From positions 65,163-129,162 of the forward strand of contig JAFXHG010000038.1 in NCBI GenBank assembly GCA_017536505.1: 64,000 nucleotides of DNA, given 5' to 3'. The notes beneath the pieces were generated by a model that was given only the letters and a program-made list of their open reading frames with translations, did not search any database and was not told the DNA's origin. Shown here in pieces: positions 5,771-57,548 of this stretch (position 1 is the stretch's first letter; each line of letters starts with the position of its first letter). This DNA comes from Bacilli bacterium. GTDB lineage: Bacteria > Bacillota_I > Bacilli_A > RF39 > UBA660. A program made the translations under genes and the position numbers.

Positions 5771-7503
5771 TCAAACTCCATATTTTAAACCTTTTTTCTT
5801 TAAAATTAGTTTCCTAATAAAATCAAACGGTATTACTGTAAGAGCAAATAAAATCATTACCTCTAATTCAAATAAAGATAACCCACTAGTTCTAAATATT
5901 GAACCTCCAAAATATATAAGTAATATTTGAACTATAACTATAAACAACATTATAAGTAAGAATATTTTATTTTTTAAGATATTAGCAAATATATTTAATC
6001 TGTGAGTCCTAGAATTAAAACTATTAAATATATCAATAAATATAAATAATCCAAAGAATGCTGTATATAAGTATATTTCACTTCTAAATAGATTTTTTAT
6101 AAATGGAAGTTTTAAGAATAATATACATATTAACGAAGAATATATTCCCGTTAAAAATATTTGATTAATCATGTATTTATTTATTATAGGTTCATCCTTT
6201 TTCTTAGGATATTCATTCATATACTCTTTTAATGGCGGTTCAAATGAAAATGCAAGTCCTGCTAAAGTATCCATAACCATATTTATCCATAACATTTGTA
6301 TCACTGTTATGGGCATTTCTATATTTATAAATGGACCTATTATAGATAACGATAAAGCACATAAATTTATAGTTAATTGAAGTATTATAAATTTTCTTAT
6401 ACTTTTAAAAATTGTTCTACCAAATAATATAGCCTTTGATATAGATAAGAAGTTATCATCTAATATAACTATATCACTTGCTTCTTTAGCAACTTCAGTA
6501 CCACTACCCATGCTAAATCCTACATCAGCTTTTTTGAGTGCGGGAGCATCATTAACTCCATCTCCTGTCATACCTACTACTAAATTCATTTCTTGGCTAA
6601 TTCTAACCAATCTACTTTTATCTGTTGGCAGACTGCGAGCAACTACTGATATTTGCAAAAGCTTACTTTTCAGTTCATCATCACTTAGTTTATTTAATTC
6701 TTCACTAGTTAGAATCAAATCCCCAGATTTATAAATTCCTACTTCTTTTGCTATTGAAGTAGCTGTTTCCTTATTATCGCCTGTAATCATTATAGTTTTA
6801 ATATGAGCATTATTAACTAAATTTACTCCCTCTATTGCTTCAGGTCTTACATCGTCTTTAATTAAAACTATACCTACTAAAGTTAAATTTTTTAAATCAT
6901 TCATATCTCTATTTTTAGAAGTAGCAAGTATAAGTACTCTTATACCATTTTTAGTATTATCATTTATTAAAGATTGTATTCTATTTGTATTTATTAGTTT
7001 TCTAACATTTCCAAAATTGTCATAATAACTAATACAATTTTTTAAAAGTTTTTCAGGTGCACCTTTTATTAAATTAATTCCATCTATTTTAGTTATTGAG
7101 TATTTATTTTTACTATCAAAAGGCAATATGTCTTCTTTTTTTATTTTTGTATTATCATTTTTAAAATAAGATAAAATAGCCCTATCAGTAATATTTCCAC
7201 CTATTACTTTATCTCCATCATAACTACTTTGATTATTTCCTAAACAAGATAATTTGACAATATTATAATATTTTTTATTTTTTTCTAAATCTTTTTCTTT
7301 TTTATACTCTTTTAAATCTCCACTAATTATACTTTTAACTTCAAGTTTTCCTTTAGTGAGTGTACCTGTTTTATCAGTAAAAAGAATATTAATACTTCCA
7401 CTAGTTTCTATACCAACAAGTTTTCTAACTAATACATTATTTTTTAACATCCTTTTCATATTAGAAGAAAGAACTAAAGTAATCATCATTGGTAAACCTT
7501 CTG
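5771..7503 (-). pseudogene. 3' (C-terminal) part of a P-type cation (Ca2+-type) ATPase gene split by ICE insertion
   Basis: Contains DKTGTLT, MITGDN and GDGVNDAPALKKADVG. The reading frame is open upstream of the ORF-track start through EGLP to the junction, with no start context of its own. Confidence 0.85.
7498..7503. repeat. left junction core (attL), CTTCTG direct repeat
   Basis: The same hexamer occurs at 56684-56689, at exactly the points where the two ATPase halves end. Confidence 0.7.
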
Positions 7504-7513
7504 ATTGATTCCC

Positions 7514-9115
7514 TTAATGATTATATTTCTCTAATAAAAAATTTAATTTATTAAAATTAAAGTATATATCATATTCCTTATTTTTATGTATTTCTATTCT
7601 CCTTATCAATTTAATCATAAGGTCTCTGTCTATATTACCATTTAAAAAATCCTTGATTAATTGTTTGCTTTCACTATTCATTTCTTCATTATTTTCATCT
7701 TCGTTTGTAGCACTTTGCAATTCCATTAATGTTGCTTGTAATCTATTAATTTCTAATTTCTTTTTTTCACTAATTCTTGCATACATAGCATCATCAATTT
7801 TACCATCCATTTTATCTAAATACATATTATCTAGTTGCTCTGTCTTTATTTTAATATCGTTAATTATATTATCTAATTTGATTTTATTATCCTCTATTAT
7901 TTTAGTTTTCTTTTTTATATCTTCTGCACTTTCATTTATTTTATTTCCATCCATAATTTTTGTAAATAAAGTTTTAAGCATTTTTAATATATGTTCTTCT
8001 ATTTTATCATAATTATATGAATGTGAAGTACATAACTTTTGTTTTGAATACATCCTATAATAATTACATACTATATATGTTCTACCATCACTCTTTCTAG
8101 GTTTGCATATTGAAATTCTGTGCTTGCAATCATAACAATATAACAAACCATCTAAAAGTCTATAAATTTCTTTTTTAGGCCTAGTCTTACAATTTTTTAA
8201 TCTATGTTGTATAAATTCAAATGTCTTTCTATCTACTAAAGGTTCGTGAGTATTTGGCACTACTATCCATCTTTCTTTAGGAACATCTTGTATTTGTCTC
8301 ACTTTATAACTAACTCTACATCTTCTATTTTGTACCATATCTCCTAAATATAATTCGTTCTCTAACATATTTCTGACAGTTTTAGAGCACCATATACCCT
8401 CATTAGCCATAGGTGTATTACTATGCTTTCTTCTCAACATTGAAGCTGTAGGTATTTTTTCTTCATTTAATTTTTCTTTTATTTCAAAATAAGTAAAACC
8501 TTTTTTAGCCCAATCAAATATCTTTCTAACTATATATGCTTCGTCTTCATTAACAACTAAATGATTTCTATTTTCAGGATCCGGCATATATCCTAATGGA
8601 GCACATCCACCAACCCACAAGCCTTTTAATTGTTTTGTTTTTAATGCTGTTCTAATTTTTTTTGAATTATCCTTTGAATACATATCGTTTATTACAGCTT
8701 TAAAAGGCGCAATATCATTGTTTGTAGTTTCAGAGGCAGTATCTATACCATCTAATATTGAAACAAACCTAATCCTTTTTTTAGGAAAATATTTTTCTAC
8801 ATATTCACCCGTTTCTATATAATCCCTACCTAATCTAGATAAATCTTTAGTAAGTACCATATTGGCCCTACCTAATTCCAAATCAGTGATCATTCTTTGA
8901 AAATTTGGTCTATTAAAATTTGTCCCTGTATATCCATCATCAATATAAAAATCTACTATTTCAAGTCCTTGTTCATTTGCATAAGATTCTAATAAATCTT
9001 TTTGATTTTTAACACTTTCACTTTCATCTTTCTTGTCTAAATCTTCTTTTGATAATCTTATATATATAGCAACTCTGTATTTAGATTGATTATTTATTGT
9101 TAGTGTATTATACAT
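7514..9115 (-). CDS. large serine recombinase (resolvase domain + recombinase/zinc-ribbon + coiled-coil tail)
   Basis: VAIYIRLSKED...LTKDLSRLGRD resolvase N-terminus; Cys cluster CYDCKH...CNYY; stop codon about 10 nt from the junction. Confidence 0.9.
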   Translation of the reverse strand: MYNTLTINNQSKYRVAIYIRLSKEDLDKKDESESVKNQKDLLESYANEQGLEIVDFYIDDGYTGTNFNRPNFQRMITDLELGRANMVLTKDLSRLGRDYIETGEYVEKYFPKKRIRFVSILDGIDTASETTNNDIAPFKAVINDMYSKDNSKKIRTALKTKQLKGLWVGGCAPLGYMPDPENRNHLVVNEDEAYIVRKIFDWAKKGFTYFEIKEKLNEEKIPTASMLRRKHSNTPMANEGIWCSKTVRNMLENELYLGDMVQNRRCRVSYKVRQIQDVPKERWIVVPNTHEPLVDRKTFEFIQHRLKNCKTRPKKEIYRLLDGLLYCYDCKHRISICKPRKSDGRTYIVCNYYRMYSKQKLCTSHSYNYDKIEEHILKMLKTLFTKIMDGNKINESAEDIKKKTKIIEDNKIKLDNIINDIKIKTEQLDNMYLDKMDGKIDDAMYARISEKKKLEINRLQATLMELQSATNEDENNEEMNSESKQLIKDFLNGNIDRDLMIKLIRRIEIHKNKEYDIYFNFNKLNFLLEKYNH

Positions 9116-9171
9116 ATTCCCTCCTTATACTAACAACAACATTCACAACTATAATAAAAATACAATATATT

Positions 9172-9309
9172 TTATTTAATTGCAAATGTGCGATTTTGAT
9201 ATTTTTTTATAATTTCAATAAGTCTTTCTTCAAACGCTTCCATAACTATTTCTTCAAATGTTGGTCCTTCTTCATCAAAAAATATATTTACTTTGAATTC
9301 ATCTTCCAT
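9172..9309 (-). CDS. unannotated small acidic ORF (45 aa: MEDEFKVNIFFDEEGPTFEEIVMEAFEERLIEIIKKYQNRTFAIK)
   Basis: GGAGGA 7 nt upstream of the ATG; lies just upstream of the recombinase gene; below the ORF-track size cut-off. Confidence 0.4.
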   Translation of the reverse strand: MEDEFKVNIFFDEEGPTFEEIVMEAFEERLIEIIKKYQNRTFAIK

Positions 9310-56549: not shown

Positions 56550-56611
56550 TTTTTCCTCCTTTCTAACAAGTATATAAATAACAAACTATATTATTTTATT
56601 AATTTAATATA

Positions 56612-56636
56612 AAATAAAAAGAGGTTTTATCCTCTT
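56612..56636 (-). terminator. terminator-like hairpin just inside the right ICE end
   Basis: Stem AAGAGG/CCTCTT followed by TTTTTATTTT on the minus strand, between the truncated ATPase 5' half and parA. Confidence 0.45.
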
Positions 56637-56678
56637 ATATTAGTTGAAATGTTATTGTTATTTGTATCATTGTGGTAC

Positions 56679-57548
56679 TCACTCTTCTGGTACAGCAACT
56701 ATTATTATAGTTACGCATAAAGTCAAAGCATATAAAATATGTCCTGTGATTATAGGAAAGTTAGTTATCATATTGCTTATTTCATTTAAATTAAAATGGT
56801 TATTTATTACAATTACTTTAAATAAATAGGAAAAAAAGACTAAAAAGGCACCTACATATCCTATTTTACTTATAAATTTAGCGAGTTCTCTAAGTCTTAA
56901 TTTTAAAGGTGTCTCTGGTTGTTTTTCTTGTAGTTCTAAAGCTATTTTACCATAAAAAGTATTTTCACCAACACTTGTAACTTTCATTAAGGCTGTATTA
57001 CTATATACAACACTTCCTTTGTATACTCTATTTTTATCATTAACTAAATTCATATTTATTATAGATTCCTTATAGGCTTCTTTGGTTTCACCATTTAAAC
57101 TAGATTCATCTACACTTATTTTCCCTTTTATAATTAACCCATCTGCAGGTATTTTATCTCCTGTTTCTAAACTAACTATATCATTAACAACTACTTCACT
57201 TACAGGTATTTCTATTTTTTTACCATTTCTTATTACTCTACAAGAAACCTTACTTACTTCTTCTTGTAATTTTTCAAATGCTTGTTCACTACCATACTCG
57301 GATATAGTAGAAATAAGGGATGCGAGTAATATAGCTATTACTATACCTATAGTTTCATACCAATCAAAATTTTTAAATAAAAATATTGTTTTTATAGCTA
57401 AAGCAATTAATAATATTTTTATTATAGGATCCCCTAATGTACTTATTAATAGTTTTAAAAAACTATCTTTTTTAGTTTTCTTTAGTTCATTACTTCCATA
57501 TTTTTTTCTACTCTCTATCACTTCAATATCAGTTAGTCCATTATACAT
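56679..57548 (-). pseudogene. 5' (N-terminal) part of the P-type cation ATPase gene split by ICE insertion
   Basis: Cation_ATPase_N-like start (GLTDIEVIESRKKYGSNEL), TM1-4, actuator domain; ends ...IVAVPEE-stop, where intact enzymes read VAVPEGLP. GGAGGT RBS favours the ATG at 57548. Confidence 0.85.
56684..56689. repeat. right junction core (attR), CTTCTG direct repeat
   Basis: Identical hexamer to 7498-7503, at the end of the ATPase N-terminal half. Confidence 0.7.

Follow-up and report, generated by a model that had tools for sequence, protein, structure and literature searches.

A serine-recombinase integrative and conjugative element probably integrated at the PEGLP motif of a Ca2+-ATPase gene in an uncultured gut bacterium

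The window examined here, a stretch of 64,000 nucleotides from contig JAFXHG010000038.1 (positions 65,163 to 129,162 of the forward strand), belongs to a metagenome-assembled genome of a Bacilli bacterium (GenBank assembly GCA_017536505.1; GTDB lineage Bacteria, Bacillota_I, Bacilli_A, RF39, UBA660), which is 1.19 Mb long in 38 contigs, has a G+C content of 25% and is 90% complete. It carries the two halves of a P-type ATPase gene, separated by some 49 kb of DNA in which lie an integrase, a relaxase, a coupling protein and a VirB4 protein, and nearly all open reading frames (ORFs) between the two junctions share the direction of the ATPase gene (Table 1). Here we describe this insert, which has the gene content of an integrative and conjugative element (ICE), together with the gene that it splits and the relatives of its recombinase.

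Table 1. Features of the split ATPase gene and of the element between its halves (window positions, position 1 being the first letter of the stretch).
Feature	Position	Strand	Remarks
Ca2+-ATPase 3' fragment	5771..7499	-	..GLPMMITLV.. through DKTGT to stop; host B' arm of attL at its 5' end
Left crossover GA (likely)	7500..7501	-	plus-strand TC; inside CAGAAG 7498-7503
attP-derived P arm	7502..7526	-	ATCAT 16-20 bp from GA (plus-strand ATGAT 7517-7521); overlaps last codons of recombinase gene
Large serine recombinase, 533 amino acids	7514..9115	-	Pfam Resolvase, Recombinase, Zn_ribbon_recom
45-amino-acid ORF (MEDEFKVNIFFDEEGP...)	9172..9309	-	strong ribosome-binding site; directly upstream of recombinase gene
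Cargo region (~20 kb)	9377..30426	-	MazF toxin, sigma-70 region-4 protein, large family-less proteins, histidine phosphatase, hybrid histidine kinase, AMP-binding enzyme, Y-family polymerase, two CAAX-protease-like proteins
CHAP-domain cell-wall hydrolase (VirB1-like role)	30983..32485	-	profile scan
VirB4-like conjugation ATPase, CD1110 family	32487..34799	-	NF045971 1019 bits, cut-off 325
PrgI (VirB3-like)	34753..35136	-	PF12666, E 4e-29
Possible TrbL/VirB6-like membrane protein	39113..39955	-	PF19597 21 bits, below cut-off 27
VirD4-like coupling protein, CD1115 family	40253..42076	-	NF045973 518 bits, cut-off 250; Pfam T4SS-DNA_transf
Relaxase (MobA/VirD2 nuclease domain; MobP-type) and DUF3801 protein	43098..45112	-	profile scan
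DUF3991-Toprim primase-like protein	47283..48230	-	profile scan
Sortase and 1199-amino-acid thioester-domain/SpaA-repeat surface adhesin	49712..53930	-	profile scan
ParB and ParA	54839..56549	-	profile scan; first genes at the upstream end of the ICE
Terminator-like hairpin and T run	56619..56636	-	~45 nt inside the ICE, downstream of 5' ATPase fragment
attP-derived P' arm	56661..56685	-	ATGAT 16-20 bp from GA (plus-strand ATCAT 56666-56670)
Right crossover GA (likely)	56686..56687	-	plus-strand TC; inside CAGAAG 56684-56689
Ca2+-ATPase 5' fragment, 290 amino acids	56679..57548	-	ATG at 57548; ends VAVPEE, then element-supplied TGA
Sigma-E-like promoter	57566..57593	-	TCATAAA-N13-CATATATT; ~18 nt upstream of ATPase ATG 57548

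The two ATPase fragments share a short repeat at their broken ends. CTTCTG on the plus strand, which is CAGAAG in the direction of the gene, is present at 7498-7503 and again at 56684-56689, as an earlier reading made from the letters and their translations (the sequence-only reading) had pointed out. The minus-strand ORF 56679-57578 ends in ...TLCVTIIIVAVPEE-stop (IIIVAVPEE*), with one foreign codon after VAVPE and then TGA, while the frame entering the ORF at 5771 reads ..SEGLPMMITLVLSS...FTDKTGTLT and includes SEGLPMMITLV. Neither fragment has internal stops, and joining the flanks in silico at the CTTCTG repeat gives one open frame that contains IIIVAVPEGLPMMITLV, so that VPEGLP and the ATPase are restored, as had been proposed. 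The joined protein has 863 amino acids counted from the ATG at 57548, and with 80-88% identity its residues 1-863 align to intact orthologues from eight sister species. Five alignments are gap-free, and none of the eight has a gap near the junction. One intact orthologue (L001), to which the joined protein is 88% identical, scores 595 bits on TIGR01517, the model of PMCA-type Ca2+-translocating P-type ATPases (cut-off 507), and the joined protein carries both DKTGT and PEGLP. The product of the split gene is, by this family match, a PMCA-type (P2B) Ca2+-ATPase, its ion specificity being a prediction from the same match. Chance can produce a 6-bp repeat, but not a gapless in-frame restoration of 863 residues together with the empty sites described below.

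Empty and occupied versions of the site exist side by side in the genus. We searched the 24 other species with 800 bp of the joined site and found it uninterrupted across the junction in 17 (75-85% identity; colinear over positions 1-800 in 14). Fragments never contiguous in related genomes were named in the sequence-only reading as a ground for refuting it, and the outcome favours that reading. The match is broken at exactly the same base in five other species, which with the window genome makes six occupied sites. Both ATPase halves were found at three of these (in genomes labelled G016, G024 and G014), where a recombinase gene 87%, 61% and 56% identical, respectively, to that of the window directly precedes the 3' ATPase fragment; in the remaining two (G020 and G010) the 5' half was found with an ICE end. 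G020, G016 and G010 share the ICE end of the window (AGAGTGAGTACCACAATGATAC...), and the ICE ParA is 99% identical in G016 and G020. Over 10 kb, the ICE of G020 is 95-99% identical to the window ICE, compared with 83-86% for the ATPase fragment and host flank, and the step in identity coincides with the junction, which both fixes the boundary and reveals recent transfer between species. In a scan of 401 family genomes for the right end of the ICE, we recovered only the window genome and one doubtful match with two mismatches. This particular ICE thus seems, on sequence matches, to be confined to the genus, where besides the window genome it was found in G010, G016 and G020. The doubtful match lies in another genus (G052:C11:31015-31034, locus L128) and resembles the right-end arm (AGTGTGTACCATAATGATAC); it may mark a related element elsewhere, or be due to chance.

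The recombinase gene lies at the left junction, where a large serine recombinase had been recognised beforehand, and its domains bear this out: PF00239 (residues 15-165) matches at E 2e-26, PF07508 at E 7e-23 and PF13408 at E 3e-9. Residues R20-L21-S22 are invariant in an alignment of four orthologues, and the nearest solved domain is the TnpX catalytic domain (2MHC, E 7e-29). The stop codon of the gene is 12 nt from the crossover given below, so attP overlaps the end of the recombinase gene. The small ORF directly upstream has no Pfam match and is a candidate accessory or directionality factor; in the wider family, homologues of 39-60 amino acids (M..[FY]K[IVL]N.[IF][FY]..) stand before the majority of the recombinases, irrespective of the site targeted.

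Comparison of the occupied sites narrows the point of exchange. Both junctions share the core CAGAAG in the window, while the shared core is GAAG for G016, CCAGA for G014 and CAGA for G024; GA alone recurs in every one of the four, within the GAA (Glu) codon of PEGLP. This central GA is the likely exchange point, and, measured between its plus-strand copies (TC, 7500-7501 and 56686-56687), the element has a length of 49,186 bp, which refines the ICE boundaries that the sequence-only reading had drawn at these junctions. Independent support for GA as the centre comes from the spacing of a short motif around it: ATCAT stands 16-20 bp from GA in six of six P arms, and ATGAT likewise in all three distinct P' arms, whereas in the host B' arm ATGAT stands 11-15 bp from GA, as part of the ATG ATG AT codons of P-M-M-I. 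For the Listeria A118/LI integrase, attP has the zinc-ribbon motif at positions 16-24, and attB has it 5 bp further inward (PMC3783163). The offsets found here, 16-20 bp on the attP side and 11-15 bp for B', match that pattern, with a motif drawn from sequence only and a poor fit in the B arm. The repaired attB joint is predicted to read ..GCTGTACCA-GA-AGGTTTACCAATG.., and the attP joint of the circle ..GGGAATCAATCA-GA-AGAGTGAGTACC... A target-site duplication made by a transposase was considered as the source of the repeat and rejected: there is no transposase, the repeat is only 4-5 bp at the other sites, and the half-sites have the symmetry of serine-integrase sites.

We propose, with a probability of about 0.85, that a Tn1549/CTn4-type ICE was integrated by its own serine recombinase at a PEGLP attB within a PMCA-type Ca2+-ATPase gene. 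Integration would be a site-specific exchange between attP of the ICE and the chromosomal attB inside the ATPase gene, with the crossover at GA in the Glu codon (GAA) of PEGLP, a motif of transmembrane helix 4. On each side roughly 25 bp would be recognised by the recombinase, a stretch that in the host encodes IIVAVPEGLPMMITL; because this peptide is strongly conserved, the landing site is present in many species. The reaction would leave a 290-residue 5' fragment closed by an element-borne TGA and a separate 3' fragment, inactivating the pump, and the reverse reaction between attL and attR would rebuild the ATPase gene exactly. That the element is active at present is our inference.

The position of the cut is that of the ion-binding Glu inside transmembrane helix 4 of P2-type ATPases, and for this reason the split pump is very probably inactive while the element is integrated. 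A functional two-piece pump was considered and judged unlikely, the cut falling inside the ion-binding helix. At the junction beside the recombinase gene (7487-7503, minus strand) the host sequence AGAAGGTTTACCAATGATG gives a Shine-Dalgarno-like AGAAGG 7 nt before ATG ATG, and the recombinase gene has no terminator after its 3' end. With these two features, the 572-residue 3' fragment could be translated as a separate polypeptide. The statement in the sequence-only reading that the host lacks this cation pump holds in that the gene is split, but is too strong physiologically, since two intact paralogous P-type ATPases remain in the genome (32% and 29% identical to the split pump). Both have a PEGL motif, and neither has the flanking ATGATGAT, which explains why the recombinase ignores them.

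Relatives of the recombinase are common in the order, and only some of them share its target. In an order-level sample of 301 genomes, 182 contain relatives (E <= 1e-60), often in multiple copies per genome of about 1.2 Mb. An ATPase 3' fragment directly follows only the closest of these; at every locus examined, a recombinase with roughly 49-57% identity or more abuts such a fragment, which starts at residue 286-288. Those from the sample (about 49-57% identical; in G164, G014, G247, G281, G288, G206, G205 and G143), with fragments starting at residue 287 or 288, span, with the window genome, seven genera, and a scan of GTDB contigs added two further cases at the ATPase site, HF989903.1 (labelled Acholeplasma sp. 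CAG:878) and a MAG labelled 'Bacilli bacterium'. No ATPase 3' fragment follows relatives L106-L108 (48-49% identity) or any that are more distant. By maximum likelihood, the recombinases that target the ATPase fall into two clades with good support and a single long branch; the target label requires two changes on the tree, and none of 500 shuffles reaches as few, so that it is strongly clustered. There is, then, a recombinase lineage dedicated to the PEGLP codon in at least seven genera. The clades not aimed at the ATPase must have other fixed sites, and, judging by the abundance of such sequences, serine-recombinase elements are a large part of the mobilome of this family.

What the integration module carries varies. 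The insert of G014 (L011 3117-8529, G014:C3) uses the same GA, is only 5.4 kb long and has no conjugation genes; it encodes a radical-SAM/GNAT fusion protein (599 amino acids), a PmbA/TldD-like peptidase (435 amino acids) and the recombinase that is 56% identical to that of the window. Going by these predicted products, it may be a peptide-modification cassette on the shared integration module. Set against the window ICE, it shows one integration module with quite different cargo.

The 49,186-bp insert itself is, by its predicted proteins, an ICE with a Tn1549/CTn4-type backbone, its recombinase and conjugation genes intact and densely packed. The assignment follows from the families of its VirB4 and VirD4 proteins, CD1110 and CD1115, both recognised with equivalog models (NF045971 and NF045973), which point to the Tn1549/CTn4 type and not to that of Tn916/Tn5397. 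CD1110 and CD1115 are genes of CTn4 in Clostridioides difficile 630. At the upstream end of the element, the hairpin is placed to stop host read-through into parA and may insulate the ICE. Between the adhesin/sortase genes and the primase-like gene in the order of the ICE lies a gene for an SSB-like protein, identified by reading its sequence.

A number of C. difficile ICEs with single large serine recombinases insert within ORFs and are flanked by repeats of 2-9 bp, and their circular forms and clean empty sites have been shown experimentally (PMC3158075). Among C. difficile elements, CTn2, CTn5/Tn6103 and CTn7 have VirB4 and VirD4 proteins of the CD1110 and CD1115 families as here, with CTn4 and Tn1549 as the backbone references. 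The present ICE differs from CTn2, CTn5/Tn6103 and CTn7 in its target gene, its recombinase lineage and its uncultured gut host with a small genome, and is known from its sequence alone. The sequence-only reading had compared it with Tn5397-type ICEs, a comparison that stands for the large serine recombinase and fails for the conjugation module, which is of the Tn1549/CTn4 type. Tn5397 (recombinase TndX) and Tn4451 (TnpX) are clostridial transposons mobilised by large serine recombinases. TndX, a relative of TnpX, always uses a central GA and targets DNA encoding the conserved Fic domain, and the DNA of conserved domains was suggested by the authors of that study to be a ubiquitous target for a promiscuous element (PMC4430133); TnpX has a 2-bp target site (PMC3158075). 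The logic of a conserved target is thus shared with the PEGLP site. However, the conjugation module of Tn5397 is of the Tn916 type and Tn4451 can only be mobilised, both unlike this ICE; the likeness of TnpX to the window recombinase is limited to the catalytic domain, and TndX alone suffices for integration and excision, a point on which the window recombinase may differ.

Gene-intervening elements with serine recombinases form the other natural comparison. They are known from sigK (skin), spsM (SPbeta), spoVFB (vfbin), spoVR (vrin) and gerE (gin) (PMC4191935, PMC5595907), and gin shows that such elements need not be phage-derived (PMC5595907); in the literature searched, no Ca-ATPase target is named for them. 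As in skin, SPbeta and gin, a large serine recombinase element here splits a probable mother-cell gene, and excision would restore the frame exactly. None of skin, SPbeta, vfbin, vrin and gin is a complete conjugative element, unlike this ICE.

Whether the comparison with intervening elements is pertinent depends on the host and on the regulation of the pump. The genome encodes Spo0A (272 bits, cut-off 200), SpoIVA (696 bits, cut-off 460) and YabP (104 bits on TIGR02892, cut-off 75), at C32:28410-29150, C1:24417-25889 and C36:~20059 of genome G000, and from these genes the host is likely a spore-former with a very small genome. The ATPase gene is preceded by a promoter-like sequence of sigma-E character: its -35 element has ATA and its -10 element CATA.A.T, matching the -35/-10 logic reported for C. 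difficile (PMC3789822). Among the 12 sister species with a recovered upstream region, the motif is recognisably kept in all and exact in 10, while the flanking and further upstream sequence diverges. The strict motif has only 11 matches in 2.38 Mb of strand sequence; one of the others lies 15 nt before yabP, and another before a weakly GerS-like lipoprotein gene. The sigE regulon of C. difficile includes CD2833, a putative Ca-ATPase (PMC3789822). By motif and by analogy, the Ca2+-ATPase gene is probably a mother-cell (sigma-E) sporulation gene. A probable mother-cell target would be a cheap landing site during vegetative growth, and it is this that makes the comparison with skin and SPbeta pertinent.

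Taken further, the comparison would make the ICE a sporulation-coupled intervening element of the skin/SPbeta/gin kind, kept in the forespore chromosome and excised in the mother cell, where a sigma-E-dependent calcium pump would be rebuilt to supply calcium for the spore. We regard this as unlikely, although it draws on more than the spo genes of the host, the conserved promoter of the ATPase gene and the analogy with CD2833: large serine recombinases also serve the intervening elements already described, which need not be viral (PMC5595907), and some relatives carry a sporulation signal of their own. In the clade-2 ATPase-targeting elements L103/L104 and L105 (G288, G206, G205), sigma-E-like promoters lie directly before the operon of small ORF and recombinase, about 200 nt upstream of the recombinase start (e.g. 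TAATAAT-N14-CATATACT and TTATAAA-N14-CATACATT), and across all recombinase loci there are five independent matches of this kind before such operons against 0.8 expected in 26 kb. These motifs hint that some relatives of the recombinase element are excised in the mother cell. In elements of the skin/SPbeta/gin type, however, the recombinase or the directionality factor is under a sporulation sigma factor, and with strict and relaxed sigma-E/sigma-K patterns we found no such promoter before the recombinase, the 45-amino-acid ORF or any other gene of this ICE. Being fully conjugative and passing between species, the element can persist without any part in development, and a pump that serves sporulation alone is just as well accounted for as a low-cost place to land. 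The likeness to skin and SPbeta drawn in the sequence-only reading proved more fitting than foreseen, given the likely spore-forming host and the sigma-E-like promoter of the ATPase gene, but a sporulation promoter before the recombinase of the ICE was not found. The broader idea that the PEGLP-targeting elements, from the 49-kb ICE to the 5.4-kb radical-SAM element, make up a family of sporulation-coupled intervening elements, with the 39-60-amino-acid ORF as directionality factor, is in our judgement similarly doubtful.

The insert might instead be an immobile remnant that has disrupted the gene irreversibly, its ATPase fragments on the way to becoming pseudogenes. The window assembly and the metagenome contigs searched yielded no circular form and no empty-site variant, as such a remnant would predict, but the recombinase and all conjugation genes are intact and the ATPase fragments are free of stops; a 95-99% identical copy at the same base in another species, within flanks of 83-86% identity, requires recent transfer and integration, which makes this reading very improbable. 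A prophage, or a chimera of metagenome binning and assembly such as a 38-contig MAG might invite, deserves next to no credence, given a full type IV secretion set, the lack of any capsid, portal or terminase family among 40 ICE proteins scanned, the lack of any megablast match of either half of the element to 50,697 phage records, and the recurrence of the same two junctions in the independent assemblies G016, G020 and G010.

Several points weigh against integration at the PEGLP attB, or against details of it, as we have set it out. The GA call, itself drawn from alignment, pools sites of recombinases 56-87% identical and assumes the same cut position for all, and the B arm, which reads ATAGT, fits the ATCAT motif poorly. 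Exact scans of JGI metagenome contigs found neither the attP junction nor the right end of the ICE, an outcome that is uninformative rather than negative. The best sigE-like gene falls below its NCBIfam cut-off (299 against 349 bits), dpaA was not found in the genome, and the promoter is assigned to sigma-E by analogy and by a motif that was read in a genome with a G+C content of 25%. Any phenotype of the split pump, finally, may be masked by the two paralogous P-type ATPases.

Serine-recombinase ICEs and intervening elements are familiar; the novelty here lies in the target, in the lineage of the recombinase and in how widely that lineage is spread through an uncultured family. For an otherwise uncharacterised lineage of serine integrases, the site provides a mapped attP/attB pair with a probable GA crossover, and the integrase, together with its 50-bp sites, is a candidate for engineering the genomes of low-G+C Firmicutes. 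By docking on DNA that encodes one of the most constrained P-type ATPase peptides, the lineage keeps a wide host range. About a quarter of the species representatives of the genus carry an insert at this base, and one ICE has recently crossed species there. The site is thus a real hub through which genes move in a little-studied family of gut spore-formers with small genomes. Should the pump be a mother-cell gene, its codons would be a further landing pad within a sporulation gene, which raises the question of whether a conjugative element can play the part of skin or SPbeta; were the sporulation-coupled reading true, this would be the first complete conjugative element in an intervening role.

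Two genes downstream of the ATPase lies a lipoprotein-like gene (4588-5133), and just before it, at 5151-5180 on the minus strand, is a relaxed sigma-E-like motif (GTATAAT-N15-CATATTAT). The ATPase neighbourhood may hold further sporulation genes.

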